Assembly (NCBI GenBank): GCA_000433675.1
Contig: FR893558.1
Coordinates: forward strand, 17,547-81,546
DNA: 64,000 bases
Source: Clostridium sp. CAG:433
GTDB taxonomy: Bacteria > Bacillota_I > Bacilli_A > RF39 > UBA660
Direction of reading: 5' to 3'
Shown here: piece after piece, positions 4,531 through 61,850 of the stretch
Layout of the letters: each line of letters begins with the position of its first letter
Numbering within the stretch: position 1 is the first letter of the stretch
The notes under the pieces: generated by a model
The model's input: only the letters and a program-made list of their open reading frames with translations
What the model was told of the DNA's origin: nothing
The model's database searches: none
Translations under genes and position numbers: made by a program

Positions 4531-5559
4531 GTGAGTCATAATATTGATTTAAATGTTATGAATATGAGGACAGATTTAGCTATTGATGGAGTAAATAATG
4601 AAGAACTTGAAAAGTTAAAAGAAGAAAAAGAAAATGGAATAAAGGTATTTACAGTAGATGTAACAAAAGAAAATCAAGATAAGTTTAATAAAAAATGTGG
4701 CAAATATATAACAATAGCGTTTGATGATGTGACCGATTATAATAATTCTATAAATGTTGAAAAAGTTTTTACGAGTGAACTTAAAAAAATGATTGAAAGC
4801 AATAATATACCATCTAGTGCATCATGTATAATAATTGGTCTTGGAAATGAAAAAAGTACACCAGACTCACTAGGACCACTTTCTATTAATGATATAATAG
4901 TCACAAATCATTTGTTTTCTCTTGGAATAAATGTAGAAGATGGCTTTAGAGTAGTATCTGCATTTAATCCTGGTGTTATGGGACAAACAGGAATAGAAAC
5001 TAGTGATATTATATATGCACTTATAAAAGAAATAAAACCAGATTTTGTAATTGTGGTTGATGCACTAAAAGCATCCAATGTTGATAGAGTAAATAAAACA
5101 ATACAAATAACAGATGCTGGAATAAATCCTGGATCAGGAATTGGAAATACTAGAAAAGAAATTAGTAAGGATGTACTTAATATACCAGTATTTGCGGTTG
5201 GTGTTCCAACTGTAGTAGATACTGTAACAATAGTAAATGATACACTTAAATATTTAGAAAATTATATATGTTATATGAAAAATAATATGGATAATCCAAA
5301 AGAAAAATTAAAAATAGTAAGAACTAATATAGATAAAAATAATCTTGAAATTGATGAAAAAAATAATCTTTTTGGTTTAATTGGAACTTTAAAAGAAGAA
5401 GACTTTAAATCATTATTAATAGAGGCTATAAATCCAGTTGGATATAATATGATAGTTACACCAAAAGAAATAGATTTTGTTATTGATAGGCTCGCAAATG
5501 TAATATCAACTGGAATAAATAATGCACTTCATGACAAGGTTACACACTTAAAAGTGTAA
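4531..5559 (+). CDS. gpr: germination protease (spore SASP endopeptidase)
   Basis: GTG start with AGAGGTGA RBS; RTDLAIDG, CIIIGLGNEKSTPDSLGP, GVMGQTGIETSDII, INPGSGIGN blocks match Gpr. Confidence 0.85.
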   Translation: MSHNIDLNVMNMRTDLAIDGVNNEELEKLKEEKENGIKVFTVDVTKENQDKFNKKCGKYITIAFDDVTDYNNSINVEKVFTSELKKMIESNNIPSSASCIIIGLGNEKSTPDSLGPLSINDIIVTNHLFSLGINVEDGFRVVSAFNPGVMGQTGIETSDIIYALIKEIKPDFVIVVDALKASNVDRVNKTIQITDAGINPGSGIGNTRKEISKDVLNIPVFAVGVPTVVDTVTIVNDTLKYLENYICYMKNNMDNPKEKLKIVRTNIDKNNLEIDEKNNLFGLIGTLKEEDFKSLLIEAINPVGYNMIVTPKEIDFVIDRLANVISTGINNALHDKVTHLKV

Positions 5560-5632
5560 ACTTTTTAAATTATAATATATATCGACACTTTATTTAAAAT
5601 ACAGGGATTATTCTATTTATAGGGTGATTTCT

Positions 5633-6643
5633 ATGAAAAGGGCTAAATTAAAAAATCATAGTAAAAAAAAGAAGATTTTTCCTAAAAGAATATTTAAATT
5701 ATTAATTTTTATATTCGCAATATATCTGTCTTATTCATTTACATTTAATTTTTTATCAAAAAAAGACATAGATATAAAAGATAAGAAATATGTTGATTAT
5801 TTACTTAGTGCAGCATATAAAAAGGATAATAAAAAAATATTATTAGAGGAAAGTTTAAAAATGGTATCAAATATTGATTTAAAAGATCCTACGACACTTT
5901 TATCTAGTAATATAAAATCATCAAAAAGTGAAACAAAAAATAAATATACAAAAGATGCTGAAGCAAAAGAAGATGATTATAATGCATCTGTATATGAAAA
6001 GATAACATCATATGTTGAAAATCCATTAAAAGATAAAGAAAACCCTATTATATATTTATATAATACACATCAACTTGAAACATATTCTAATAGTGGATTT
6101 GAAAATTCTAATGTAAATCCAAATGTTCTTATGGCATCTTATTTACTTGCGGAAAGTCTAAATAAAAGTAATATAAATACTATTGTAGAAGATACTAATA
6201 TAAATGAATTTAATAGAGTATCCGGAATAAGTGATAATGATTTTTATAATACTACTAGAATATTTTTAAAAGAAAAAATAAATAAATATCAAAGTATTAA
6301 ATATTATATAGATATGCATAGAGATTCAGTTGATAAAAATATTTCAACATGTACAATAAATAATAAAAATTATGCAAGAGTTTTATTTGTATTAGGTACA
6401 AAAAATGAAAACTATTTAGAAAATAAGAAAAATATGACAGAATTAGATACATTAATGGATAAATATTATCCAGGATTATCTAGAGGTATTTATGAAAGAA
6501 AAGCGTATTATAACCAAGATTTAAATAAAAATATAATGTTAATTGAACTTGGTGCGAAAGAAAATACTATTGAAGAGGTAACAAATACAATTGATGCATT
6601 AACATTTATATTTAATAAATATATTAATGGTGATGATAAATGA
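5633..6643 (+). CDS. spoIIP: stage II sporulation protein P
   Basis: ATG 5633 preferred over GTG 5624 (RBS AGGGTGA 5 nt upstream). N-terminal TM; IYLYNTHQLETYS and C-terminal amidase-like region typical of SpoIIP; gpr-spoIIP adjacency as in Bacillus. Confidence 0.75.
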   Translation: MKRAKLKNHSKKKKIFPKRIFKLLIFIFAIYLSYSFTFNFLSKKDIDIKDKKYVDYLLSAAYKKDNKKILLEESLKMVSNIDLKDPTTLLSSNIKSSKSETKNKYTKDAEAKEDDYNASVYEKITSYVENPLKDKENPIIYLYNTHQLETYSNSGFENSNVNPNVLMASYLLAESLNKSNINTIVEDTNINEFNRVSGISDNDFYNTTRIFLKEKINKYQSIKYYIDMHRDSVDKNISTCTINNKNYARVLFVLGTKNENYLENKKNMTELDTLMDKYYPGLSRGIYERKAYYNQDLNKNIMLIELGAKENTIEEVTNTIDALTFIFNKYINGDDK

Positions 6644-15486: not shown

Positions 15487-15517
15487 TAGATTGTACACTT
15501 GGATTAGAGGTGAATAT

Positions 15518-22043: not shown

Positions 22044-23210
22044 ATGAAGAAAAAAGGATTTACATTAATAGAATTATTAGCAGTAATAGTAATACTTGGA
22101 ATAATAACTGTAATAGCAGTACCAAAAGTATTAGATATTATAAATAAATCAAAGGAGAGTGCGTCAAGTAGTAGTATTAAACTTGTAAAAGATGCGATTA
22201 AAACACAAGTAGCTGCAAGTGAATTAACAAATTCAGCATTTACAAAAGAAACTGATGGATGTTATTTATTCAACTTTGATGATCAAACAAGTGGTAACGC
22301 AAAAGCACTAGAAATAAAAAATAAAGATAAAGTATCAGGAAGTATTAAATATTGTAATAATACTTTTACTGATGATACTTTAAAATTTGATGGTAATAGC
22401 ATTAGTAAAGGTGATACAAAAAAGGCAATATGTAAAAGAGCTACAGTACTTCATACAGAAGAATGTACACAAACAGATTCACAATATTATTGTTCCGGTG
22501 CAGGATACACAAATAGTGGTTCAAAAGGAACAAGTACAATCACATATGGTAATCTAGGAACAAATGGAATATTAACTTCGGGAGACGCATTTGATTGTGA
22601 TGTAAATGGTGATGGAATATATAATCCAGAAACAGAAAGATTTTATTATGTAACAGATATGGACGATATAACAGCAGTATTAATATACTATAATAACGTT
22701 AGCGCAGGTAATCCAAGTAATACAAAAAACTATGCATATGATAGTTCAGGAGAAAATTGGCACGGACCAAGAACTGCGATAGAACAATTACCAACAACAA
22801 GTCAATGGAGTAATGTAAGATTAACAAATAATGTAAGACCAATAACAACAAATACAGGGGGGAACACAACAGCAGGAGGGACATTACCAAGTAATTTTAG
22901 TTATGCAGGATATGCAGCAAGATTACTAACAATACAAGAAGTAAAAAAAGGAACAGGATTAAGTAATATACCAACATTGCAAGTAGGAGAATTAGATAAC
23001 TTTACTTATTTACTAGAAAACACAAAATTTGCAAATAATAGTAATGTTGCATGGGCATGGTGGTTAGAAAATTCTCTTTCCGATAATTCTGTGAATGCTT
23101 GGTTTACGTATGGTCATGGTCGCTATGTCAATTATAACACTGTTTCGGATGCTGTTGGCTATGCAGTTCGTCCAGCAATAGAAGTATCAAAAAGTAATAT
23201 AGAATATTAA
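22044..23210 (+). CDS. prepilin-type N-terminal cleavage/methylation domain protein with 360-aa Cys-rich globular domain
   Basis: MKKKGFTLIELLAVIVILGIITVIAVPKV class-III signal peptide; the rest is Thr/Ser/Asn-rich with multiple Cys. Confidence 0.6.
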   Translation: MKKKGFTLIELLAVIVILGIITVIAVPKVLDIINKSKESASSSSIKLVKDAIKTQVAASELTNSAFTKETDGCYLFNFDDQTSGNAKALEIKNKDKVSGSIKYCNNTFTDDTLKFDGNSISKGDTKKAICKRATVLHTEECTQTDSQYYCSGAGYTNSGSKGTSTITYGNLGTNGILTSGDAFDCDVNGDGIYNPETERFYYVTDMDDITAVLIYYNNVSAGNPSNTKNYAYDSSGENWHGPRTAIEQLPTTSQWSNVRLTNNVRPITTNTGGNTTAGGTLPSNFSYAGYAARLLTIQEVKKGTGLSNIPTLQVGELDNFTYLLENTKFANNSNVAWAWWLENSLSDNSVNAWFTYGHGRYVNYNTVSDAVGYAVRPAIEVSKSNIEY

Positions 23211-23244
23211 AAAGGTAAAACTTAAATTAAAGTTCTACCTTTTC
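23210..23244. terminator. bidirectional hairpin between convergent genes
   Basis: AAAAGGTAAAACT-loop-AGTTCTACCTTTT. Confidence 0.45.
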
Positions 23245-24177
23245 TTTTTCTAAAAATTCTTTAAATTCTTCTTTAAATTTTACTAATTCTTTTTGTACTA
23301 CATCAGGGTATACACTATTACAGTTTTTTATTGCTGCATATATATGTTTAAATGTAACTATATCTGAGTTTTCGAATCTAGCATATGTGAAGCATTTTGA
23401 TAAAAGTGCTAATGAAACATCTGGGTATCTTGAATTATTTTCATAAACTCTTTTATATTCACTTGTCATATCAACTATAAATTTACATACATTTTCTAAA
23501 ACCCAATTAGTATATGGCCATCTAACACCAGTTGATTTTTCAATTTTCTTTGTTGTACCCATAAGAATCTTTACAGTTGTTTCTTGATCTGGTTCAGCAA
23601 CTTCTATTCTTTCAAAACGTCTTAAGAATGCTTTATCTTTAAGTAAGTTTTCTTCAAATTCTTGAGTAGTAGTCGCACCAATTATTTTTATTTCACCTCT
23701 ATCAAGTCCAGGTTTTAACATGTTTAGAAAGTCAACATCACCATTTTTTGATGCAGTAACAAGTGTATGTATTTCATCAATAAATAGAATTATATCTTTT
23801 TTACCCATTATTTCATTAATTAAAAGTTGAAGTTTAGAATCTTCAACACCATCACTAGTGTATGTTCCAAGCAAAGAAGAAGTATTTATTTTATAAATCT
23901 TTGAATTAAGAAGTGCATTAGGTACTTCTTTTCTTTGAATTAAATAATTTAATCCTTCAACAATAGCAGTTTTACCTATACCTGGTTTACCTGTTAAAAC
24001 AGCAGACTTTTCAGGACTAAGTAATACAAGTATTAATTTTTTTATTTCTTCTTCTCTAGCAATAGCGGGATTAGTAACATATTCTTTTTTACTTAGATCT
24101 TCAGCATAATTACTAAGCATACTAAATCCATTTGAAAATGGGCTAGGATTATATTCCATAAAATCATTATTATCCAT
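23227..24177 (-). CDS. stand-alone ClpA/ClpB-type AAA+ ATPase, first nucleotide-binding domain (D1) only
   Basis: Walker A GKPGIGKTAIVEGL, Walker B ILFIDEIH, sensor-1 IIGATT, Arg-finger RRFER: collinear with Clp/Hsp100 NBD1. No N-domain, middle domain or NBD2; 316 aa. Confidence 0.6.
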   Translation of the reverse strand: MDNNDFMEYNPSPFSNGFSMLSNYAEDLSKKEYVTNPAIAREEEIKKLILVLLSPEKSAVLTGKPGIGKTAIVEGLNYLIQRKEVPNALLNSKIYKINTSSLLGTYTSDGVEDSKLQLLINEIMGKKDIILFIDEIHTLVTASKNGDVDFLNMLKPGLDRGEIKIIGATTTQEFEENLLKDKAFLRRFERIEVAEPDQETTVKILMGTTKKIEKSTGVRWPYTNWVLENVCKFIVDMTSEYKRVYENNSRYPDVSLALLSKCFTYARFENSDIVTFKHIYAAIKNCNSVYPDVVQKELVKFKEEFKEFLEKEKVEL

Positions 24178-46455: not shown

Positions 46456-47436
46456 ATGAAATTTAAAAAATTTTTTTTAACGCTTCTAATTTCATTAATT
46501 ATTATACCAATAAATGCATATGCTTATTCAGACAAATTGATTGTTGGCGGAAATAATATTGGTATAGAGGTTAAAACTAAAGGAATATTAGTTATTGGTA
46601 CATACGAAATAAATGGTGAATATATCAACAAAGATTCTAATGTAAAAGCAGGAGATTATATAACCAAAGTAAACAATAATAAAATAGAAAATATAAATGA
46701 TTTTACAAGTGAGATTAATAAAGACGATGATAAGACAAAAATAGATATAGAATATAATAGAAATGGTAAGAGTTATACAGGTTCTTTAAAACTAGTAGAA
46801 TCAAATGGTGAATATAAAACAGGTTTATATGTTAAAGATACAATAAATGGTGTTGGGACACTTACATTTATAGATCCAAACACTAAAATATTTGGAGCAT
46901 TAGGTCATGAAATCGCTGATAAAAATACAGAAAGTATCTTAAATATAGATGATGGTTCAATATACTACTCATATATTACCGGAATTACTAAAAGTGAAAA
47001 TGGTAATCCCGGTGAAAAGGAAGCTACTTATGATGATAAGTTAAAATATGGGGTAGTTAAAGAAAATACTAAAAGCGGAATATTTGGTAATTATACAAGT
47101 GATATAGATAATAGTAAGTTATATGATGTTGCTAAAAAAGGTGATGTAAAACTAGGTAATGCAAAAATACGAACAGTATTAGATGGAGAAGAGATAACAG
47201 AATATAATATTGAAATAGAAAAGATTAATTTAAATGATAAGACTAAAAATATTGTGTTTAAAATAACAGATGAAAATTTACTTAATAAAACTGGTGGTAT
47301 TGTGCAAGGAATGAGTGGATCACCTATAATTCAAGATAATAAAATAATAGGTGCAGTAACACATGTTATTGTAAATGATTGTACTAAAGGATACGGAATA
47401 TTTATAACTAATATGCTAGAGGAAGCAGAAAACTAA
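46456..47436 (+). CDS. spoIVB: SpoIVB peptidase (S55)
   Basis: Signal peptide; PDZ region; GTLTFIDP...FGALGH and GMSGSPI catalytic serine motif. Confidence 0.85.
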   Translation: MKFKKFFLTLLISLIIIPINAYAYSDKLIVGGNNIGIEVKTKGILVIGTYEINGEYINKDSNVKAGDYITKVNNNKIENINDFTSEINKDDDKTKIDIEYNRNGKSYTGSLKLVESNGEYKTGLYVKDTINGVGTLTFIDPNTKIFGALGHEIADKNTESILNIDDGSIYYSYITGITKSENGNPGEKEATYDDKLKYGVVKENTKSGIFGNYTSDIDNSKLYDVAKKGDVKLGNAKIRTVLDGEEITEYNIEIEKINLNDKTKNIVFKITDENLLNKTGGIVQGMSGSPIIQDNKIIGAVTHVIVNDCTKGYGIFITNMLEEAEN

Positions 47437-49483: not shown

Positions 49484-50257
49484 ATGTACAAACTAAAAGA
49501 AGATTTAAGTATAGAAAATATGATATATGAAATAAGAGGTAGGCAAGTAATGCTAGATTGTGATTTAGCAAAATTATATAATGTTGAAACTAAAAGAATA
49601 AATGAGGCGGTAAAAAATAATCCTGACAAATTTCCGGAAAGATTTTATTTTAGAATAAATGAAAATGAATTTTTTTCTTTGAAGTCGAAAATTTCGACTT
49701 CAAAAGGTGGTTCTAGAAAAGGACATAATGTATTCACAGAACAAGGGATTGCAATGCTATCTACAATATTAAAATCCAAAGTAGCAGTAGAAACAAGTAT
49801 AAGAATAATGGATGCATTTGTAAAAATGAGAAAATATATTTCAGCAAATTTAATAGAACAAGACAATATGAAAAATATGCTTATTAAACATGATAACGAA
49901 ATAAAATTACTTCAAGAATCATTTTCAAAATTAGAGGAAAAAGAAAAAATAAATCATATATTTTATGATGGACAAATATATGATGCATATTCACTATTAA
50001 TTGATATATTTAAAGGTGCAAAAGAAGAAATAATTATAATAGATAATTATGCAGACAAAAGTATTTTAAATATGATAACGAACCTAAATGTAAAAGTAAC
50101 TATTGTTACTAGAAAATTTAATTTATTAAAAGATATAGATATAAAAAAATATAATAGGCAATACCATAATTTGAAAGTAATATACAGTGATAAGTTTCAC
50201 GATAGATTCATAATACTTGATAAAAAAGTATTGTATCATTCAGGAGCGAGCTATTAA
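49484..50257 (+). CDS. ORF6N/KilA-N-like DNA-binding domain protein
   Basis: MIYEIRGRQVMLDCDLAKLYNVETKRINEAVKNN...FPERFYF...GHNVFTEQGIAMLSTILKS matches the ORF6N domain pattern. Confidence 0.55.
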   Translation: MYKLKEDLSIENMIYEIRGRQVMLDCDLAKLYNVETKRINEAVKNNPDKFPERFYFRINENEFFSLKSKISTSKGGSRKGHNVFTEQGIAMLSTILKSKVAVETSIRIMDAFVKMRKYISANLIEQDNMKNMLIKHDNEIKLLQESFSKLEEKEKINHIFYDGQIYDAYSLLIDIFKGAKEEIIIIDNYADKSILNMITNLNVKVTIVTRKFNLLKDIDIKKYNRQYHNLKVIYSDKFHDRFIILDKKVLYHSGASY

Positions 50258-54839: not shown

Positions 54840-57062
54840 ATGACAATAGGTGTAAATTTAAAAACAATAGTAAAAAATTATTCATTATGTGAAAAGTTAT
54901 TTAGAGAAGATTGTAAAGACAATAATTATGTAAAAGGAATATTGGATTTTTTTTCTAATGTTGAAATAAATAGTGATATTATACGTGATTTAAAAAGACT
55001 AAAAAAAGAAGGGAATAAAATAGATTTATACGTACCTAATTATTTAGTTTATGATAATAAAATAATAATGGAAAAAGTTAAAAGATTATTAGAATTTGAT
55101 GAGTTTTCTTTTGACAATATAAAAAAATATAATTCATTAGATGAATTAAAAAATGATAATATAGATTGTTTTGTTTCTGATTTTAATATTGGTGGACAAG
55201 GAATAATTTTACCATATCAAGTAATTAAATTAGATAGTAGTGATTATGAAAAATTTGAATTAGTAAAAAAGGTTTATAACGCTAATTATGATATCAATTT
55301 AAGAAAAATTAATGAACTTGAATATAATACTCAAAAAGCAAGAACAGGTATTCCATCTGTAGATAAACCATGGAGAAAGTTTTATTCAGAAAAAGAAAAA
55401 AGTGTAGTAATGCCAAAGAAAACTATGTATGAATATTTAAGATGTGGCGCTGAAAAAATGTCTAATAAGACTGCTCTTATTTATTATGGAAGAAAATTTA
55501 CATATAAAGAATTGATGGAAAAAATTGATAAGTACGCATCATCATTTATAAGTTATGGAATAAAAGAAGGAGATGTTGTATCAATATGTATGCCAAATGC
55601 ACCAGAAGCAATTTTTATGGTATATGCATTAAATAAAATTGGTGCAATTGCAAATATGATACATCCTTTAAAAAGTCCTAATGAAATAAAAGAATATGTA
55701 AATAAAGTTGATTCTAAAATGTTACTTGTTTTAGATACGTCACTTCAAAATATAGAGGGTATAACAAATGAATTATGCACTGATAAAATAGTTTCGGTAT
55801 CAGTTGGTAATTCAATGCCTTTATATATGAAACTTATATTTGAAAAATCAAAAAAATTAAATTTAACAAAAGAATATATTTCTCTTAAAGATTTTGAAAA
55901 TAATGGAAAAAAAGTAAAAAATTCATTACAAGTAGATTATAAAGAAAATGCTGGCGCAGCAATAATGCATACTGGTGGTACAAGCGGTAAATCAAAGGCT
56001 GTTTTACTTACAAATGATAATCTTAATTCAATGGTTCATGCTCAAAGAGTAACAGCTAAAAACTTTGCTGAAGGTGATGTAATGCTTACAATAATGCCTG
56101 TATTCCATGGATTTGGATTATGCAGTTCTGTTCATATGCCTTTATCATATGGTGTATCAGTAGTTTTATGGCCAAAGTTTGAATCTAAAAAGTTAAAATC
56201 AATGTATGAAAAAAATAACGTTAATCACATGTTTGGAATACCAAAGTTATTTGAATGTTTAATAAAAGAAAATGTTGATTTAACTAATGCTGGATATCTT
56301 GTTTCAGGTGGGGAAAAAATTGAACAAAAAAGAGAACAAAAAATTAATAATGGGTTCTTGGAGAATGGTTCAAGATTTAACTTAAAAAAAGGTTATGGTT
56401 TAACAGAAGCAACAGCGGGTACAACTTTATCTGATGATTATAGTAATAGACTCGGAAGTATTGGAATACCACTTGTATGTAATGATTTTAAAGTAGTAAA
56501 ACCAGGAACAGAAGAAGAACTAGGATATTATGAAAAAGGTGAATTTTGTATTTCAGGCCCAACTGTTATGAAGTGTTACTATAATGATGAAGAAGAAACT
56601 AAAAAAACATTAAGAAAACATTCTGATGGAAAAATATGGCTTCATACAGGTGATATGGGATATATGGATGAATCTGGGCTTTTATATTACACAGATAGAT
56701 TAACAAGAATGTATACATCTGGAGGATTTAACGTATATCCACCACATATAGAAGAAGTTATATTAAAATTAGATGAAATAGAATCATGTGCAGTAGTACC
56801 AATGAAACACCCAAGTAAAAATATTAAAGTGCCAAAGGTATATATAATTATGAAAAAAGGTTATGAACTTAATGAAGATTTATTAAATAAAATAAAAAAT
56901 ATTTGTTCTTTAAATCTTGATTTATATCATCAACCATTTAGTATTGAGAGTATAGATTCATTCCCAATAACAAATTTAGGAGAAAATATTGGTAAAGTAG
57001 ATTATAAAAAATTAGAAGAAAATGCAAATGAAACAGTGAAGGTAAAAAAATTAGTAAAGTAA
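54840..57062 (+). CDS. AMP-dependent synthetase/ligase (acyl-CoA/acyl-ACP synthetase-like) with ~190-aa N-terminal domain of unknown function
   Basis: Adenylation motifs TGGTSGKSKAV, GYGLTEA, K-terminal lysine region; adenylation domain begins near residue 200. Confidence 0.7.
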   Translation: MTIGVNLKTIVKNYSLCEKLFREDCKDNNYVKGILDFFSNVEINSDIIRDLKRLKKEGNKIDLYVPNYLVYDNKIIMEKVKRLLEFDEFSFDNIKKYNSLDELKNDNIDCFVSDFNIGGQGIILPYQVIKLDSSDYEKFELVKKVYNANYDINLRKINELEYNTQKARTGIPSVDKPWRKFYSEKEKSVVMPKKTMYEYLRCGAEKMSNKTALIYYGRKFTYKELMEKIDKYASSFISYGIKEGDVVSICMPNAPEAIFMVYALNKIGAIANMIHPLKSPNEIKEYVNKVDSKMLLVLDTSLQNIEGITNELCTDKIVSVSVGNSMPLYMKLIFEKSKKLNLTKEYISLKDFENNGKKVKNSLQVDYKENAGAAIMHTGGTSGKSKAVLLTNDNLNSMVHAQRVTAKNFAEGDVMLTIMPVFHGFGLCSSVHMPLSYGVSVVLWPKFESKKLKSMYEKNNVNHMFGIPKLFECLIKENVDLTNAGYLVSGGEKIEQKREQKINNGFLENGSRFNLKKGYGLTEATAGTTLSDDYSNRLGSIGIPLVCNDFKVVKPGTEEELGYYEKGEFCISGPTVMKCYYNDEEETKKTLRKHSDGKIWLHTGDMGYMDESGLLYYTDRLTRMYTSGGFNVYPPHIEEVILKLDEIESCAVVPMKHPSKNIKVPKVYIIMKKGYELNEDLLNKIKNICSLNLDLYHQPFSIESIDSFPITNLGENIGKVDYKKLEENANETVKVKKLVK

Positions 57063-57074
57063 TGGAGGCTTTTT

Positions 57075-58649
57075 ATGGCAAATATAGCATTTGATGTAGA
57101 TGGAGTAATGACAAATTTAGCAAAATTCCAATTAGATACTGGAAGAAAATATTTTGGGGAAGATTCTGTTAAGGATCCTACAAAATATGATGTAAAGGAT
57201 ATTTTTGATGTTAGTAAAGAAGAAAGAGAAAAATATTGGTTAAAATATATATGGCCATATTGTATAACTGAAGAAATGAGAAAAAACTTAAGCGAATTAC
57301 CTAAAAAGTTAAAGGCAGATGGCCATAAAATTTATATAATAACTGGCAGAGTTCACACAACAGAAGATGGAATTAGAGGTAAATTATTTAGAAAAATGCT
57401 TTTATCTTGGCTTAAAAAAAATGGCTTTGAATATGATGAAATCATTTATGTTAATGAAAACAATAGTGCAGAGGAAAAACTTAATGCATGTAAAGAAAAT
57501 AATATTGATTTAATGATAGAAGATAAAACAGAAAATATTGAGGTAATCAAAGATGTATCAAGTGTAATATGTGTTAATGCAGAATATAATGAAAATGCAG
57601 ATTTTGGTGATATTGTTAGAATAGATAATTTTGATAATGGTTATGAAGTAATTAATTCTGTTTTAGAAAAAGATAATAAAAATTTTAAATTGTTATCTAA
57701 TGAAGAGATGGATGAATTATCACAAGATGAATTAAAAAAATATTATGAAAAAATGAGAGAATATTATAAAAATAGACCATTAGATCCAAATTTAAAAAAA
57801 CAAGAAAAAACATATCAAGTAACTAGTAAAGTTGGAATACCTTTATTTAAACTTGTTTTTAAACCTCATATGTTTGGCAAAGAAAATATACCAAAAGAAA
57901 AAAAAGGTAATATTTATGTTAGTAATCATTTAGGTTCACTTGATCAATTTCCAATTATAAGTATGCTTGGACCTGATTCACCAATGCATTTTTTAGCAGC
58001 ATCAACACTTTTAGGTTTAAAAAGAGCGCTTCTTTATACAAAAACAGGTGCAATATTTGTAGATAGAAATGATCCACAAAGTAGAAAAGAATCAAAAGAA
58101 AAAATGATGCAGATATTATTAAATGGTGGTAATGTATTCTTATTTCCAGAAGGAACAAGGAATTATTTAAGAGAAGGACAAGCAAAAGAAATATTTGAAA
58201 AATATATAAACGATGATATTCCATTTGAAGATTTTTATGAAAAAGTAAAAAAGAATAAAACATCACAAGTAAATTATTTAGAAGAATTATTAAAAAATAA
58301 TACAATAACAAAAGAAGAATTTGTTAAAAATATTTATGATGTTGATAGTTTCTTGAAGGAATTAGTAACAGATAAAAGAATAAATGAATCAGATTATTAC
58401 GAAAATATTTTCTTACCATTCAAATATGGAGCTGTCGCAATGGCAAAAGAAACAGGTGCAACAATTGTTCCATTCGCAGTAAATAATAATTACTTTAATT
58501 CTGATCCTCTTTTAGTACGTGCTGGAAAACCAATGAAAGTAAATGTAGAAGATGATTTAGAAGAAAAAACTTCTGAACTTAGAGATGAAATAAAAACTAT
58601 GGTTTGGGAAAATGCGGAATATGAGAAAACATTAAAATTAAGAAAATAA
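57075..58649 (+). CDS. fusion protein: HAD-like (5'-nucleotidase-type) domain + PlsC/LPLAT acyltransferase domain
   Basis: N-terminus IAFDVDGVMTN (HAD motif I DxDG); C-half VSNHLGSLDQFPI (HX4D) and FPEGTRN block III. Confidence 0.6.
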   Translation: MANIAFDVDGVMTNLAKFQLDTGRKYFGEDSVKDPTKYDVKDIFDVSKEEREKYWLKYIWPYCITEEMRKNLSELPKKLKADGHKIYIITGRVHTTEDGIRGKLFRKMLLSWLKKNGFEYDEIIYVNENNSAEEKLNACKENNIDLMIEDKTENIEVIKDVSSVICVNAEYNENADFGDIVRIDNFDNGYEVINSVLEKDNKNFKLLSNEEMDELSQDELKKYYEKMREYYKNRPLDPNLKKQEKTYQVTSKVGIPLFKLVFKPHMFGKENIPKEKKGNIYVSNHLGSLDQFPIISMLGPDSPMHFLAASTLLGLKRALLYTKTGAIFVDRNDPQSRKESKEKMMQILLNGGNVFLFPEGTRNYLREGQAKEIFEKYINDDIPFEDFYEKVKKNKTSQVNYLEELLKNNTITKEEFVKNIYDVDSFLKELVTDKRINESDYYENIFLPFKYGAVAMAKETGATIVPFAVNNNYFNSDPLLVRAGKPMKVNVEDDLEEKTSELRDEIKTMVWENAEYEKTLKLRK

Positions 58650-58657
58650 AATAAATA

Positions 58658-58692
58658 AGACAAAATTTAATAAAAAATTTGTCTTTTTTTAT
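58658..58692 (+). terminator. rho-independent terminator
   Basis: AGACAAAATTT-aataaa-AAATTTGTCT then TTTTTTTAT. Confidence 0.5.
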
Positions 58693-58734
58693 ATAAAATA
58701 TGTTATCATTATAATGGATGGAGGTAGATAAAAT

Positions 58735-60573
58735 ATGTATAGTTCATTATATTTTCAAATATGTAGTTTATTTTATATTGTATTACTTATGGTAATATTT
58801 TTCTCAAAAGACAAAATAAAAAGTAAAGAAAATAAAATATTCTCAATATTGATAGTTACAAATTTTGTAGGATTGTTACTTGATTTAGCAAGTACATATA
58901 TGGCATTAACAGATTTGAACAATCCATTATTAAACTTTATATCAAAATTATATTTGGTTTATTTATTAACTTGGATTTCGTTATTTACATTTTATACATT
59001 TGTTATATCATATAGTAAAAATAATAGTACGGAGTTTTCTAAAACTACAAAGTATAAAAATGTGAAACAGGTGTCACTTATTTTATATTTTGTAATGGCA
59101 CTTTTATTATTAGTATTACCATTATATAACTTTAGCGAAAATGGAGTCATATATACATATGGACCAGGAGCTAACATTTCATATATAATTGGTGGTTTAT
59201 TAGATGTTGTATCAGTAATTATGATTATTTCTAATATAAGAAGAGTAAAGAAAATAAAATATTTACCACTTATATTTTATATCGCAGCATCAGCATCAGT
59301 AATATTAATACAAAAACTTCAACCTGAAATACTTTTAGTAACTGCAGTTGAATCATTTGTTACATTCTTACTTTACTTTACAATTGAAAACCCTGATGTT
59401 AAATTAATTGAACAACTCAATTTAGCTAAAGAACAAGCAGAAAGAGCAAACAGAGCAAAAACAGAGTTTTTAAGTAGTATGTCACATGAAATAAGAACAC
59501 CACTTAATGCTATTGTTGGATTTAGTAATTCATTAAGTGATAACAAAAATATACCAGATGAAGCAAAATCAGATGTAAAAGACATATTAGTTGCATCAGA
59601 TAGTTTACTAGAAATAGTAAATGGTGTACTTGATATTTCAAAAATTGAAGCAAACAAAATAGAAATAGTAAAAAAAGAATATGATACTAAAAAGATGTTT
59701 GATGAACTTGCAAAATTAACAAAAGTTAGAATAGGTGATAAACCAATTGATTTTATAACTAAGTTTGATGAAACTTTACCTAGAGTATTATATGGTGATC
59801 AAACAAGAACAAAACAAGTAATATTAAATATTTTAACAAATGCTGCTAAATATACAGATAAGGGTAAAATTATATTTAGCGTTCAGTCAGTAGTTAAAGA
59901 TAATGTATGTAGAATGATTATATCTGTAGAAGATACTGGTCGTGGAATAAAGAAAGATAGTATAAATAAATTATTTACTAAGTTTGAAAGATTAGATGAA
60001 GAAAATAATACAACAATAGAAGGAACAGGTCTTGGACTTGCAATTACAAAAAAATTATTAGAGATGATGCATGGTAAAATTGTTGTACAAAGTGAATATG
60101 GAAAAGGATCTAAATTTACTATATCTTTAGATCAAAGAATTGTAAAAAATCCAACTATTAAATTAGATGAAGAAAAGACAGATGATATAGAAATTATTGA
60201 TTTATCTTCTAAAAAAGTATTAGTTGTAGATGATAATAAATTAAATATAAAAGTTGCAACTAGATTATTATCACCATACAATGTAGAAATAGTATCAGCT
60301 GAATCAGGTATGGATTCAATTGAAATACTTAAAAAAGATAAAAAGATTGATCTTGTTCTTATGGATGATATGATGCCAAAAATGAGCGGAACAGAAACAT
60401 TAAAAGAAATAAAGAAAAACAATCTATATGATGGACCTATAATCGCTCTTACTGCAAATGCACTTACTGGTATGAGAGAGAAATATATTGAACATGGGTT
60501 TACAGATTATTTATCAAAACCAATAGAAAAACCAGAATTAAATAGAATTTTAAAAACTTATTTGACAAAATAA
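58735..60573 (+). CDS. hybrid sensor histidine kinase (7-TM sensor + HisKA + HATPase + receiver)
   Basis: Seven hydrophobic helices; H-box SHEIRTPLNAI; N/G1/G2 boxes (GTGLGLAI); C-terminal REC with DD...D...K. Confidence 0.8.
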   Translation: MYSSLYFQICSLFYIVLLMVIFFSKDKIKSKENKIFSILIVTNFVGLLLDLASTYMALTDLNNPLLNFISKLYLVYLLTWISLFTFYTFVISYSKNNSTEFSKTTKYKNVKQVSLILYFVMALLLLVLPLYNFSENGVIYTYGPGANISYIIGGLLDVVSVIMIISNIRRVKKIKYLPLIFYIAASASVILIQKLQPEILLVTAVESFVTFLLYFTIENPDVKLIEQLNLAKEQAERANRAKTEFLSSMSHEIRTPLNAIVGFSNSLSDNKNIPDEAKSDVKDILVASDSLLEIVNGVLDISKIEANKIEIVKKEYDTKKMFDELAKLTKVRIGDKPIDFITKFDETLPRVLYGDQTRTKQVILNILTNAAKYTDKGKIIFSVQSVVKDNVCRMIISVEDTGRGIKKDSINKLFTKFERLDEENNTTIEGTGLGLAITKKLLEMMHGKIVVQSEYGKGSKFTISLDQRIVKNPTIKLDEEKTDDIEIIDLSSKKVLVVDDNKLNIKVATRLLSPYNVEIVSAESGMDSIEILKKDKKIDLVLMDDMMPKMSGTETLKEIKKNNLYDGPIIALTANALTGMREKYIEHGFTDYLSKPIEKPELNRILKTYLTK

Positions 60574-60615
60574 TATAGAAGTATGCTATAATCATAATAG
60601 GAAAGGATTGTAGAT

Positions 60616-60969
60616 ATGGACAGAAGTTATTTAGAAGAAAATGGCGTAGATGTAAATGCTGGGCTTGAATTACTTGGTGATATGGATATGTATAATGAAA
60701 CAATGGGTGATTTTTTAGAAGAAATAAATGAAAAATTACCAAAACTTGTTGAATACAAAAATAATAATGATATGCCAAATTATGCTATCATTGTTCATTC
60801 AATAAAAAGTGATTCAAAATATTTAGGATTTACTAAACTTGCAGAACTTGCATACAATCATGAGATGAAAAGCAAAGCAAATGATACATCTTATGTTAAT
60901 GCAAACTATGATGAATTACAAAAGGAAATTGATCGTATAATTAAAATTATTAAAGAATATTTAGGATAA
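60616..60969 (+). CDS. histidine phosphotransfer (Hpt) protein
   Basis: VHSIKSDSKYLGFTKLAELA fits Hpt H-x-x-K-G-s-a-x-x-l-G; 117 aa. Confidence 0.55.
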   Translation: MDRSYLEENGVDVNAGLELLGDMDMYNETMGDFLEEINEKLPKLVEYKNNNDMPNYAIIVHSIKSDSKYLGFTKLAELAYNHEMKSKANDTSYVNANYDELQKEIDRIIKIIKEYLG

Positions 60970-60987
60970 TTGGAGGTATTTAAATTT

Positions 60988-61392
60988 ATGGGCGAAAAAT
61001 TAGTTTTAATGCCGGATGTTAGAGAACAAACTATTCTTGTGGTAGATGATTCAAACATTACAAGGAGTTTGATTGAAAGAGTTTATAAAGATCAATATAA
61101 AATTCTTATGGCATCAAATGGAAGAGAGGCTATTGATATAGTAGATACTATGCCAGAAGGTGTTATAGTAGCAATTTTACTTGATTTAAACATGTCGGAT
61201 CTTGATGGCTTTGCAGTGCTTGATTACTTCAAAGAAAAAGATTTATTTAATAAGATACCAGTATCGATAATTACTGGTGATAGTACGAAGGAAACTATAA
61301 ATAGATGTTTATCATATAATATAGTTGACATATTAATTAAACCATTTAGTGGATTTGATATTGAAAGAGTAGTCGCAAAAATGGTAAAATAG
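60988..61392 (+). CDS. single-domain response regulator (receiver only)
   Basis: VVDDS, LLDLNM (phospho-Asp), ITG, IKPF; no output domain; ATG 60988 behind TTGGAGGT. Confidence 0.75.
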   Translation: MGEKLVLMPDVREQTILVVDDSNITRSLIERVYKDQYKILMASNGREAIDIVDTMPEGVIVAILLDLNMSDLDGFAVLDYFKEKDLFNKIPVSIITGDSTKETINRCLSYNIVDILIKPFSGFDIERVVAKMVK

Positions 61393-61411
61393 ATTTAAAG
61401 GAGGAAAAAGT

Positions 61412-61765
61412 ATGAAAAAAACAACAGTAACAGGGTTAGAAGAAAAATGGGAGGTATTCTTAGTTTATATTATAGGAATCTTAGGATTTATATTTTCATT
61501 CATGAAATATGATTATCTATCAAGTAATATTAAGTTCCAATATAGACAAGCAGGTACAATATGGCTTGTAAATATGATATTTTCAATTGCTAAAATAATT
61601 TTAGCATATACAATAAATATTGCATTTATTGGTTATATATTCAATATGCTTTCACTTGTACTTTGGGTATTCTCAATCATAACAATTGTAAAAGCATTTA
61701 GCAATGAAACATATGAAATCCCTGTAATCGCAGATTTATCTAAAAAGATATTTGGAGAAAAGTAG
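61412..61765 (+). CDS. small 3-TM membrane protein
   Basis: AGGAGG RBS; three hydrophobic segments. Confidence 0.4.
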   Translation: MKKTTVTGLEEKWEVFLVYIIGILGFIFSFMKYDYLSSNIKFQYRQAGTIWLVNMIFSIAKIILAYTINIAFIGYIFNMLSLVLWVFSIITIVKAFSNETYEIPVIADLSKKIFGEK

Positions 61766-61785
61766 AATTATCTACTTTTTTTATT
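61761..61785 (+). terminator. rho-independent terminator
   Basis: AGTAGA-atta-TCTACT then TTTTTTTATTTT. Confidence 0.55.
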
Positions 61786-61820
61786 TTGTAAAGTAATTAT
61801 ATATTGATTGACACTTTTAA

Positions 61821-61850
61821 TTACTAAGTTGTATACTTAAAATATAGTAG
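61821..61850 (+). promoter_or_regulatory. sigmaA-type promoter TTGACA-18-TATACT
   Basis: TTGACActtttaattactaagttgTATACT upstream of the pilin-like gene. Confidence 0.4.

Follow-up and report, generated by a model that had tools for sequence, protein, structure and literature searches.

The described systems closest to the genes considered here are mostly relays in which a hybrid kinase passes phosphoryl groups to an Hpt protein or its counterpart. In the P. aeruginosa HptB network (PA1611, ErcS' and SagS to HptB to HsbR), hybrid kinases supply a stand-alone Hpt of about 115 aa, and no DNA-binding regulator forms the output, as is also the case for the locus of ‘Clostridium sp. CAG:433’ described below. 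In structure, HptB (7c1i) ranks second among the matches to the Hpt of this locus (TM 0.74; sequence identity only about 18%), and the convergence there of several hybrid kinases on one Hpt has a parallel in seven related loci where a second hybrid kinase lies beside the Hpt gene. However, HsbR drives a partner switch and has effector domains of the PP2C phosphatase and kinase types, whereas the acceptor here is a bare receiver, and the sensor domains of the network are unrelated to the seven-transmembrane (7-TM) sensor here. Hybrid kinases together with an Hpt of about 114 aa that has a gene of its own are likewise features of the Vibrio pathway from LuxQ/LuxN via LuxU to LuxO, with LuxU being among the sequence matches of the Hpt (NCBIfam 20.1 bits; PDB 1y6d, E 0.34). 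LuxO, though, has AAA+ and HTH output domains, and Vibrio sensing is periplasmic or ligand-based, not by a 7-TM bundle. The succession of hybrid kinase, phosphotransferase and receiver-only protein is also that of Caulobacter CckA, ChpT and CtrA/CpdR, where the receiver-only protein, CpdR, works by protein contact (ClpXP priming) and its allosteric switching is in doubt (PMC9981736). Points of difference are that ChpT is a DHp-like dimer and not a four-helix Hpt, that Caulobacter adds a DNA-binding branch, CtrA, and that CpdR and CckA-Rec have the FATGUY motif (T/S-G-Y) where the receiver here has T/S-G-D/E.

The unorthodox kinases ArcB, BarA and TorS are pertinent in that the Hpt-fused kinase of 22 related loci has exactly their tripartite architecture, and the Hpt of BarA (3iqt) matches that considered here (TM 0.79). 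In the window, by which is meant the whole 64,000-nucleotide stretch of DNA analysed, the Hpt is instead a separate gene and the sensor is a 7-TM bundle, as opposed to periplasmic or PAS modules; ArcA, UvrY and TorR, the cognate regulators of the three kinases, bind DNA. Among spore-forming Bacilli, a relay of several steps is likewise known from B. subtilis (KinA-E to Spo0F to Spo0B to Spo0A), and Spo0F, like the receiver here, is a receiver-only protein without an aromatic switch residue. The B. subtilis kinases are not hybrids, however, the bare receiver is the second step there and the last here, Spo0B does not have the Hpt fold, and the endpoint, Spo0A, binds DNA. A sensor consisting purely of transmembrane helices joined directly to the kinase helix is that of DesK, a kinase associated with lipid homeostasis in which five TM helices are combined with a HisKA_3 core and whose classical one-step partner, DesR, binds DNA; its comparison with the relay here is an analogy, with no sequence or fold likeness detected.

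The locus itself consists of four consecutive genes, all on the + strand (58735-61765), for a 7-TM hybrid kinase, an Hpt, a receiver-only protein and a protein with three transmembrane segments, an architecture that confirms an earlier, sequence-only reading of the window. The kinase (612 aa, 58735..60573; delineated by Pfam, residue positions and the helices of an AF2 model) scores 61.6 bits for HisKA, 93.5 bits for HATPase_c and 86.7 bits for Response_reg. Its sensor occupies aa 1-218 (58735-59388, + strand), HisKA aa 241-306, with H251 (59485-59487) within SHEIRTPLN, and HATPase_c aa 354-467, the ATP-binding domain being complete (N box at 367, G1 at 400, G2 at 430). In the internal receiver (aa 495-605) the pocket formed by D499/D500, D544 (60364-60366), T573, Y592 and K595 is invariant in 49/49 relatives, the switch position being Tyr in every one. 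Seven transmembrane segments are evident both from hydropathy and as seven helices of the AF2 model (pLDDT 84.7), and neither a PAS nor a HAMP domain intervenes between the bundle and the kinase core, which are joined directly. Apart from a spurious DUF4501 (11 bits), no Pfam family matches aa 1-220 at E up to 1; bacterial multi-TM sensors represented in Pfam (7TMR-DISM_7TM, 5TM-5TMR_LYT, MASE) were considered and set aside as none matches the sensor, and a Foldseek search of the PDB returned generic GPCR bundles only (TM 0.55-0.60, none with E <= 1e-3). The sensor belongs to a large family that has no Pfam model, with 1,037 representatives, always N-terminal to a hybrid kinase, and HisKA-HATPase-REC follows in 10/10 of the members sampled. 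For the kinase core the best NCBIfam matches are TorS (305 bits), BarA (281) and ArcB (278); equivalence to these was rejected, as the scores fall below cut-offs of 676-890 bits and the match is to the kinase-receiver core only. Public annotation calls the kinase a ‘PAS/PAC sensor’ and the 117-aa Hpt a ‘multi-sensor hybrid histidine kinase’, both of which are corrected here.

The stand-alone Hpt (117 aa, 60616..60969, + strand; recognized by PF01627, AF2 and Foldseek) has His61 (60796-60798), within H-S-I-K-S-D-S-K-Y-L-G-F, as its phosphorylatable residue. The proposal that this small protein is an Hpt is borne out by a PF01627 score of 31.2 bits (gathering cut-off 24.6; E 2.7e-7) and by the invariance of His61, which sits in the helix spanning residues 53-70. 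Most of the 120 Hpt homologues listed have a precomputed PF01627 match, H61, K64 and D66-F72 are invariant among 23 homologues, and the helix motif H-x-x-K-G/S-x-x-x-x-x-G is satisfied, with H61, K64 and G71 invariant. The AF2 model (pLDDT 96.3) is a four-helix bundle (helices 23-49, 53-70, 73-87 and 91-116) whose top Foldseek matches in the PDB are all Hpt domains (3myf at TM 0.83, HptB 7c1i, 8rqj and BarA 3iqt), and a profile-versus-PDB search aligned the His with the phospho-His of fungal HPt. The family is found in 312 species genomes. Identity as LuxU itself (NCBIfam NF041948) was rejected, the 20.1 bits comparing with a curated cut-off of 140.

The receiver-only protein (134 aa, 60988..61392, + strand) matches Response_reg (67.9 bits) and no other Pfam domain, in agreement with the earlier claim that the terminal regulator lacks a DNA-binding output. 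Its ORF opens at TTG 60970 (140 aa), and gene callers take ATG 60988, after GGAGG (134 aa). D20/D21, the phospho-acceptor D66 (61183-61185), T96 and K118-P119 are invariant in 34/34 relatives; the switch position, a beta5 residue three places ahead of the conserved Lys and here the non-aromatic I115, has an aromatic Y/F for T-Y coupling in 0/34 receivers (V in 15, M in 12, I in 7). Such a pattern speaks against allosteric output of the classical CheY kind, and with the aromatic residue missing throughout the family the output mode is uncertain. Loss of this residue is associated with intermediary or hub receivers (PMC9981736). Assignment to receivers of the FATGUY type (Sma0114, SdrG, MrrA, CpdR), as that motif is defined in the same paper (PMC9981736), was rejected since T/S-G-Y is absent from the end of beta4; the family motif is T/S-G-(D/E), Gly being invariant and D or E coming next in 33/34. 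Among solved structures the receiver is nearest to single-domain CheY (6azr, 50.9 bits) and RR468 (50.7 bits), with Spo0F (6ifh) at 39.8 bits, and Spo0F is not in the receiver's top 25 NCBIfam matches. In some relatives the receiver has an N-terminal extension of 65-110 aa.

The last gene of the unit (61412..61765, + strand) encodes a small 3-TM membrane protein of 117 aa with three hydrophobic segments; its match to DUF4870/MamF_MmsF (PF09685) is sub-threshold at 17.7 bits (E 0.0036; cut-off 25), and is ‘weak’ in the precomputed annotation as well. Intergenic spacing within the unit is 18-42 nt, and hairpins followed by U-runs stand at both of its ends (z about -3.1). That at the upstream end, AT-rich and terminator- or attenuator-like (58651..58692, + strand; dG -7.9 kcal/mol, z -3.13 versus shuffles), is between the acyltransferase gene and the kinase gene, and the corresponding spacers of 39 related loci are short (median 70 nt), contain T-runs and often include hairpins. 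The terminator-like structure at the other end (61755..61787, + strand; 12 bp hairpin and U-run, dG -10.9 kcal/mol, z -3.11) overlaps the stop codon of the fourth gene, and the gene after the unit has its own strong promoter-like site (61808-61837, 11/12 consensus match). Ahead of the kinase gene is a promoter-like site (58688..58715, + strand; TTTATA-16-TATAAT, 10/12), a consensus match only and of a type not enriched in this AT-rich region. A candidate internal promoter for the Hpt, receiver and membrane genes (60562..60592, + strand) combines TTGACA (60562-60567) with an extended -10 element, TGcTATAAT (60584-60592), at a spacing of 19 nt by the full hexamer definition, and was therefore missed by a promoter scan that allows spacers of 16-18 nt only. 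On alignment, TATGnTATAAT ahead of the Hpt gene is invariant in seven species, with the flanking spacer and the -35 element varying, and 8/15 + strand copies of TGnTATAAT in the window precede the start of a long ORF by 5-35 nt. The conserved TGnTATAAT suggests an internal promoter, so that transcription of the four genes may be only partly coupled, and the last three genes are probably also under a promoter of their own. Their products could then be made independently of the kinase, and may serve the additional hybrid kinases that lie beside Hpt in some relatives.

The same gene order is present on 6/6 inspected human-gut metagenome contigs with the exact kinase, and the same arrangement is present in eight other species-level genomes; the four-gene arrangement is more than a chance juxtaposition. 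The four genes as a whole are not the conserved unit, though: the membrane gene follows the receiver gene only in the closest relatives (L007-L013 and L069, 8-9/80 related loci), and often the receiver either forms one chain with Hpt or has no gene in the vicinity. Kinase and Hpt are a single chain in 22/80 related loci and Hpt and receiver in 14/80, natural fusions that point to the three signalling proteins being one pathway. On the other hand, sixteen loci with 7-TM kinase and Hpt have no adjacent receiver, so the true acceptor may lie elsewhere, and in seven loci a second hybrid kinase is next to Hpt. Inspection of the neighbourhoods of variant loci revealed no DNA-binding or effector-bearing regulator, and no architecture in the relatives supplies a DNA-binding domain.

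Upstream of the kinase gene are two acyl-lipid genes. The AMP-binding (ANL-type acyl-activating) enzyme (740 aa, 54840..57062, + strand; Pfam AMP-binding 233.5 bits), the ORF for which opens at TTG 54780 with gene callers using ATG 54840, is extended at the N-terminus by about 180 aa without annotation. Its best NCBIfam matches are long-chain fatty-acid-CoA ligases, all below cut-off, and among solved structures it is nearest to 4-coumarate-CoA ligase, luciferase and FadD, the substrate not being readable from sequence. The second gene (57075..58649, + strand) encodes a HAD/NT5C-like domain fused to a PlsC-type acyltransferase (NT5C 24-27 bits, Acyltransferase 68.9 bits), for which T. maritima PlsC (5kym, E 5e-6) is the sole solved relative; in 19 related loci an acyltransferase homologue precedes the kinase gene, and in L016, L018 and L070 the HAD domain is on the AMP-binding protein instead. 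The two genes are directly upstream in 33/36 loci with a 7-TM kinase as against 1/7 with other kinases (Fisher p 9e-5), and the AMP-binding cluster is the commonest neighbour of the relay (34 loci, with other non-module neighbours at <=12 loci each). Given the terminator-like spacer between them, the adjacency of acyl genes and kinase could be inherited synteny and not co-regulation. On the opposite flank a prepilin-type gene (N_methyl 25.7 bits) begins 95 nt downstream of the unit; this neighbour is in all inspected strains of the species and missing from the closest other species, and in type-A relatives murG, ftsQ, ftsA and ftsZ are downstream of the relay unit. The placement between acyl genes and a pilin-like adhesin to which attention had been drawn is strongly conserved on the acyl side, but species-specific on the pilin side.

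The label ‘Clostridia-type’ originally given to the host is wrong: the encoded proteins match those of ‘Clostridium sp. CAG:433’ exactly, and this organism is of GTDB order RF39, class Bacilli. RF39 contains family CAG-433 (PMC8035907), the genus-to-family step in this placement being GTDB naming convention, and is assigned to class Bacilli (PMC6784871; PMC10868615); relatives carrying related loci are labelled Bacilli, Tenericutes or Mollicutes. RF39 bacteria are frequent in human and animal guts and still uncultured. Theirs is a reduced-genome lineage without fatty-acid biosynthesis (PMC6784871), for which sporulation is predicted ‘with markedly different ... regulation’ in a paper that makes no mention of spo0F or spo0B (PMC10868615). 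Description of the host as a spore-former is consistent with the presence of gpr, spoIIP and spoIVB in the window, and the claimed rarity of such relays is in keeping with hybrid kinases being <1% of Firmicutes two-component proteins (PMC4558063).

On balance, the locus is predicted to be a working His-Asp-His-Asp phosphorelay that most likely monitors a lipid-related cue and has an output other than DNA binding, a reading with a reasonable probability of being correct. The membrane-embedded 7-TM sensor would govern autophosphorylation of H251, from which the phosphoryl group would pass to D544 in the kinase's own receiver, then to H61 of the 117-aa Hpt, and finally to D66 of the 134-aa stand-alone receiver. 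The relay domains and catalytic residues are all present and are invariant across the family, and the Hpt fold is confirmed. Since the 7-TM kinase is almost always just downstream of acyl genes in a lineage without fatty-acid synthesis, what is sensed is most likely a membrane or lipid cue, which might be fatty-acid or lysolipid supply or the state of the bilayer, and the relay would tune lipid scavenging or envelope physiology. As a DNA-binding domain is absent from the architectures of relatives, the phosphorylated receiver is thought to act by protein contacts or phosphate drain and not by binding DNA. A far more specific proposal, that the GPCR-like 7-TM kinase senses exogenous fatty acids, lysolipids or bilayer state and, via Hpt and the ‘switch-less’ receiver, controls the acyl enzymes post-translationally, is rather unlikely as it stands; if true, it would constitute a lipid-scavenging phosphorelay with non-transcriptional output, conserved across RF39-related gut Bacilli.

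That the relay is ‘complete’ and read out by protein-protein contact had been inferred at the outset, and the receiver might just as well be a sink or hub for phosphate. An appreciable minority chance is given to its being a sink, buffer or hub for Hpt~P, with the real output an effector regulator encoded elsewhere. A switch residue that is non-aromatic in 34/34 stand-alone receivers as compared to Tyr in 49/49 kinase receivers would suit such a role, loss of this residue going with intermediary or hub receivers (PMC9981736), as would the 16 kinase and Hpt loci without an adjacent receiver, seven having a second hybrid kinase instead, and an internal promoter by which receiver level could be set separately. 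However, the 14 Hpt-receiver fusions make the receiver an obligatory first acceptor, no effector-bearing regulator is near any variant locus, and the N-terminal extensions of 65-110 aa on some receivers are a feature more usual in a module for output or targeting.

It is improbable that the relay is the lineage's route to Spo0A, with Hpt in the place of Spo0B and a Spo0F-like receiver linking nutrient or lipid status to sporulation. The sporulation genes in the window (gpr, spoIIP, spoIVB), the markedly different regulation of sporulation predicted for RF39 with spo0F and spo0B unmentioned (PMC10868615), and the resemblance to Spo0F, both in having no aromatic switch residue and as a solved relative (39.8 bits), have to be set against a receiver that is nearer CheY and RR468 (50.9 bits), a monomeric four-helix Hpt that does not have the Spo0B fold, conserved neighbours that are acyl-lipid and not sporulation genes, and no Spo0A gene near any locus examined. 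That the relay controls the giant prepilin-type adhesin genes beside it, the receiver having the role that CheY proteins of the PilG/PilH type play in pilus systems, is very improbable: the prepilin-type gene 95 nt downstream is indeed in all inspected strains of the species, but the adjacency is limited to that species, with murG, ftsQ, ftsA and ftsZ there in type-A relatives, and a terminator-like hairpin and separate strong promoter-like site lie between relay and pilin gene. Though genome reduction is ongoing in the lineage (PMC6784871) and relay architecture is highly variable between species, the view of these genes as decaying or non-functional remnants is scarcely credible with catalytic residues all invariant across 34-49 homologues, ORFs intact on hundreds of contigs, the Hpt family in 312 species genomes and confident AF2 models.

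The preferred reading, of a relay responsive to a lipid-related cue, is of a genuine but conventional multi-step system; as its mechanism is textbook, its value is in context and in generating hypotheses and not in a new principle. The 7-TM sensor family, with about 1,000 representatives, is previously undescribed and could receive a profile model. Most informative is that across dozens of species the relay stays beside acyl-lipid genes and not the adhesin. It is one of few signalling systems visible in a reduced genome, linked through its conserved gene neighbourhood to those enzymes that would most probably install acyl chains of exogenous origin, and the analysis defines a set of proteins and point mutants with which it may be probed. 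With fatty-acid synthesis reportedly lost, the sensing and management of borrowed lipids in RF39 bears directly on cultivation of these bacteria.

The four genes at 58735-61765 all lie on the plus strand, exactly where the sequence-only reading had placed them. The first (58735-60573) encodes 612 aa with Pfam matches to HisKA (61.6 bits), HATPase_c (93.5 bits) and Response_reg (86.7 bits) and, by hydropathy, seven transmembrane (TM) segments in residues 5-217, so that the proposed 7-TM hybrid kinase of HisKA-HATPase-REC type is borne out. Its H-box histidine is H251, in SHEIRTPLN, the N, G1 and G2 boxes are all there, and the internal receiver has D499/D500, D544, T573, Y592 and K595. No PAS or HAMP domain is detectable in it with Pfam, and since PAS is lacking the public name of CDD29382.1, 'PAS/PAC sensor hybrid histidine kinase', is inaccurate and misleading, as is 'multi-sensor hybrid histidine kinase' for CDD29383.1, the 117-aa product of the second gene (60616-60969). 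The third gene (60970-61392) yields 140 aa if read from a TTG, though the likelier start is ATG 60988, 11 nt past a GGAGG, giving the 134 aa of the gene callers; its product has a Response_reg domain (67.9 bits) and no other Pfam domain. The fourth (61412-61765) encodes 117 aa with three hydropathy TM segments and a sub-threshold match to DUF4870/MamF_MmsF (17.7 bits, threshold 25). The layout is compact, with spacers of 42, 18 and 19 nt. In public assemblies 651 indexed blocks contain the exact kinase, and at all six places inspected, in human-gut metagenomes, the gene order is the same.

The assignment of the second protein as an Hpt holds, because PF01627 scores above the cut-off (31.2 bits, gathering score 24.6), the relevant histidine is conserved within a helix, and the fold is that of an Hpt domain. 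H61, K64 and D66-S-K-Y-L-G-F72 are invariant in 23 sequences with 61-94% identity to the window protein. An AF2 model built from that alignment (mean pLDDT 96.3) folds into four long helices, H61 being midway along the one at 53-70, and its closest PDB structures by Foldseek are all Hpt domains, headed by Shewanella 3myf (TM 0.83, rmsd 1.7 A), with P. aeruginosa HptB 7c1i, fungal HPt 8rqj/8pbw and BarA 3iqt among the others. A profile search of PDB sequences aligned H61 with the phospho-histidine of fungal HPt. At 90% identity the family falls into 440 clusters, and 312 of 185,579 species genomes have a member. Some members elsewhere carry added low-complexity sequence: at locus L086 (6969-8357) an E/K-rich array of ~340 aa is N-terminal to the Hpt, and at locus L040 (7968-8801) a P-A-P-V-Q repeat of ~150 aa is C-terminal, with a receiver gene directly after.

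When the domains of the window are mapped to 80 related loci, a series of arrangements emerges. The window type, kinase then Hpt, receiver and membrane protein, is found at eight, the nearest relatives. At 22 the Hpt is fused to the kinase C-terminus, recalling ArcB, BarA and TorS, and in five of these a bare receiver is next. Fourteen have an Hpt-receiver fusion of ~265 aa, both domains being confirmed by Pfam, and four of these fusions are beside a 7TM kinase. Another 16 have 7TM kinase and Hpt with the receiver not nearby, seven with a second PAS-less hybrid kinase past the Hpt, and in three the receiver after the Hpt has ~105 unannotated residues added at its N-terminus. These 'Rosetta-stone' fusions are strong evidence that kinase, Hpt and receiver belong to one pathway. 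Of the four-gene module proposed earlier the kinase-Hpt-receiver link thus stands; the fourth gene is not part of a conserved core, the whole unit being present in just 8/80 loci. An all-in-one kinase-REC-Hpt-REC form was considered and discarded: two 7TM-kinase-family proteins, P0330 (907 aa) and P0362 (922 aa), are TM7-kinase-REC-REC-Hpt, with the internal receiver tandemly duplicated before the Hpt, and lack the terminal one. Pfam found nothing significant in the receiver extensions (L014, L031) or in that of the AMP-binding enzyme dealt with below.

The working scheme is that of Proteobacterial hybrid-kinase/Hpt relays such as HptB and LuxU, and the bare-receiver end has its counterpart in the CpdR branch of CckA-ChpT. 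The relay belongs to no named equivalog, since NCBIfam scores for LuxU, TorS, ArcB and BarA, and likewise RcsC, are far under the cut-offs. With complete and conserved parts, the locus very probably constitutes a functional four-step relay, in which the phosphoryl group would pass from H251 to D544, H61 and finally D66 of the receiver.

What that last protein does is less settled. D20/D21, D66, T/S96 and K118-P119 are invariant in 34 terminal receivers. At the beta5 'switch' position all of them have V, M or I, never an aromatic residue; in the internal receiver of the kinase that position is Tyr in 49/49. The FATGUY motif is absent, the family having T/S-G-D/E instead. The switch position of Spo0F is His, and the window receiver does not appear to be specifically Spo0F-like. 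Receivers without a switch residue, e.g. CckA-Rec and Sma0114, are described as shuttling phosphate without allosteric change, and Spo0F is treated as a single-domain intermediary (PMC9981736). Among relatives the terminal receiver has no architecture that adds a DNA-binding or enzymatic domain, and a DNA-binding regulator was sought near four variant loci (L018, L051, L035 and L064) and found in none. The earlier view that there is no DNA-binding output therefore stands, Response_reg being alone, and output would be non-transcriptional; the protein-protein readout deduced from it is one of two readings. Lack of an aromatic switch residue brings both into consideration. By analogy with what is proposed for CpdR, the receiver may make contacts that depend on phosphorylation, in or close to its active site, or it may serve as a phosphate sink or hub. 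That it is a true protein-contact output and not a sink is put forward tentatively, at somewhat short of even confidence.

The unit is flanked by two hairpins with U-runs, one after the upstream acyltransferase gene (58651-58692, dG -7.9, z -3.13) and one across the fourth gene's stop codon (61755-61782, dG -10.9, z -3.11); folding of the receiver/membrane-gene spacer gave no structure. Around the kinase/Hpt spacer are TTGACA (60562-60567) and an extended -10, TGcTATAAT (60584-60592). TATGnTATAAT is invariant across seven species whose kinases are just 60-87% identical, with spacer and -35 variable and, in one species, a 40-nt insertion just upstream. TGnTATAAT is not significantly enriched across the window (20 found, 15.2 expected), so what argues for an internal promoter is that the element is conserved between species, and where it sits with respect to start codons. 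Eight of the 15 plus-strand copies are 5-35 nt upstream of long ORF starts (10849, 15478, 27778, 30268, 32304, 37396, 41122 and 60584), making this the usual promoter layout here and implying that very short leaders are probably the norm in this genome; for the mechanically listed GTG/TTG starts at 15491, 27795 and 37417, the true start probably lies further downstream. From the conserved element, its position and the compactness of the unit, we infer read-through from the kinase promoter together with initiation at an internal promoter ahead of the Hpt, receiver and membrane-protein genes, which would let Hpt and receiver serve further hybrid kinases. Transcriptional independence, which had been suggested as counting against the module, is consequently not a clean test, and an internal promoter leaves the functional link, set by the fusions, intact. 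An Rfam scan of the window gave nothing at gathering threshold, so no riboswitch or known leader is tied to the unit.

As to the input, residues 1-218 of the kinase have no Pfam match. Their AF2 model (pLDDT 84.7, pTM 0.84) has seven helices, and the loop between TM4 and TM5 includes a small beta-hairpin (131-142) and bears a conserved Y-x-Y-G-P-S; the last helix leads through a conserved juxtamembrane motif, M-Y-F-T-I-E-N-P-D, into the DHp helix. The only PDB structures that Foldseek matches to it are GPCR bundles of the generic seven-helix kind, at TM 0.55-0.60 and never at E <= 1e-3; the likeness is one of common topology and no evidence of homology. A word-indexed protein search gave 22 matches, mostly gene fragments, and an exhaustive search was therefore used: among 1.84 billion representatives there are 1,037 matches with E <= 1e-3, of which 475 reach E <= 1e-10, always with the sensor N-terminal. 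All ten proteins sampled are HisKA-HATPase-REC, four with a C-terminal Hpt and two with a duplicated internal receiver before it. By these searches the sensor is a sizeable, undescribed family dedicated to hybrid kinases, and it may sense a membrane or lipid-related cue within the bilayer.

The sequence-only reading had set the relay between lipid-acylation genes and a giant pilin-like adhesin, and here the two sides fare differently. Upstream are plus-strand genes for an AMP-binding enzyme (54840-57062) and a PlsC-type acyltransferase (57075-58649), and this adjacency is conserved: of all neighbours the AMP-binding enzyme recurs most often, at 34 loci, others outside the module reaching at most 12 each. 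Where upstream sequence sufficed, one or both were directly upstream on the same strand at 33/36 7TM-kinase loci, as against 1/7 loci with an other-sensor kinase beside the Hpt (Fisher p 9e-5). The acyl gene-kinase spacer in relatives has a median of 70 nt and usually a T-run, often with a hairpin, like the window. In NCBIfam the AMP-binding enzyme comes closest to long-chain fatty-acid-CoA ligases and Aas-type enzymes, with every score under its cut-off, and its nearest solved structures range over coumarate ligases, luciferases and FadD; the sole solved relative of the acyltransferase is PlsC. Because the HAD/NT5C-like domain is shuffled, being on the acyltransferase in the window (57075-57800) and on the AMP-binding enzyme in L016 (397-2784), L018 (2761-5262) and L070 (925-3303), domain arrangement suggests that phosphatase-like, acyl-activating and acyl-transfer modules work together as one pathway. 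The enzyme's ~180-aa N-terminal extension (54840-55400), kept only in the closest species (L001-L007) and without a Pfam match, is a candidate regulatory or docking domain. Whether the relay is functionally tied to lipid acylation we rate as evenly balanced; the composite statement of relay, lipid tie and receiver output is held with modest confidence, a little above even.

A pilin link is rejected: the pilin gene is a neighbour only within the species, with a hairpin and its own promoter between. In type-A relatives murG, ftsQ, ftsA and ftsZ come after the relay unit, and since the closest other species (L013 9207-10283; clusters C6, C13, C14 and C15) have murG, ftsQ/divIB, ftsA and ftsZ directly past it, the window's pilin-like genes appear to be an insert that separates the relay from the end of a division/cell-wall cluster. 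The giant prepilin-type protein, with the N-terminal methylation motif KGFTLIELL, is encoded from 61860 and runs off the window end at 64000 (loci L001 9126-12992 and L003 9126-13805 have it too); most strains have a 1,288-aa form and one a form of 1,559 aa. Its gene has a strong promoter-like site at 61808-61837 and is followed by one for a second protein with N_methyl and DUF6273. Far from it, a further prepilin-type protein (22044-23210, 388 aa, N_methyl 30.4 bits) adjoins an oppositely oriented AAA ATPase gene (23227-24177). Elsewhere in the window are a BspA-type leucine-rich-repeat surface protein (30310-32208), a PrkC-like PASTA Ser/Thr kinase (34112-35893) and an ORF6N protein, often phage-associated (49484-50257).

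The host is not what its name implies. The window proteins match GenBank CDD29379-CDD29385 of Clostridium sp. CAG:433 exactly, a name that is a leftover from a metagenome binning project, and from GTDB naming convention we take the genus CAG-433 to lie within the family CAG-433. GTDB has that family in order RF39 (PMC8035907), an uncultivated order of class Bacilli with highly reduced genomes and fatty-acid biosynthesis wholly lost (PMC6784871), so the description 'Clostridia-type' was wrong. The placement agrees with the titles of 80 related species genomes, nearly all uncultured Bacilli, Tenericutes, Mollicutes or Erysipelotrichaceae, and with their median GC of 26.8%. 'Spore-former' is probably right. 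The window holds gpr (4531-5559, 354 bits), spoIIP (5624-6643, 173 bits) and spoIVB (46456-47436, 258 bits), consistent with the prediction that RF39 can sporulate (PMC10868615), and these together dispose of RF39 membership as a contradiction; their setting is the classical gpr-spoIIP-lepA-hemN-hrcA-dnaK-dnaJ synteny. The rarity claimed for such relays is upheld in spirit, with the class amended from Clostridia to Bacilli: hybrid kinases account for <1% of the two-component proteins of Firmicutes, and the Tenericutes covered by a 2015 survey had none (PMC4558063).

The relay grammar itself is textbook, and the Hpt is already an 'Hpt domain-containing protein' in public records. The novelty is one of context: a corrected taxonomy, a 7-TM sensor family not described before, a series of gene fusions, a terminal receiver that lacks the switch residue, and a conserved coupling of relay and acyl-lipid genes in an organism auxotrophic for fatty acids. 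Surprise to a specialist would be modest, but the locus gives tangible access to how an abundant, uncultured lineage of the gut senses lipids, and possibly also to its developmental signalling.
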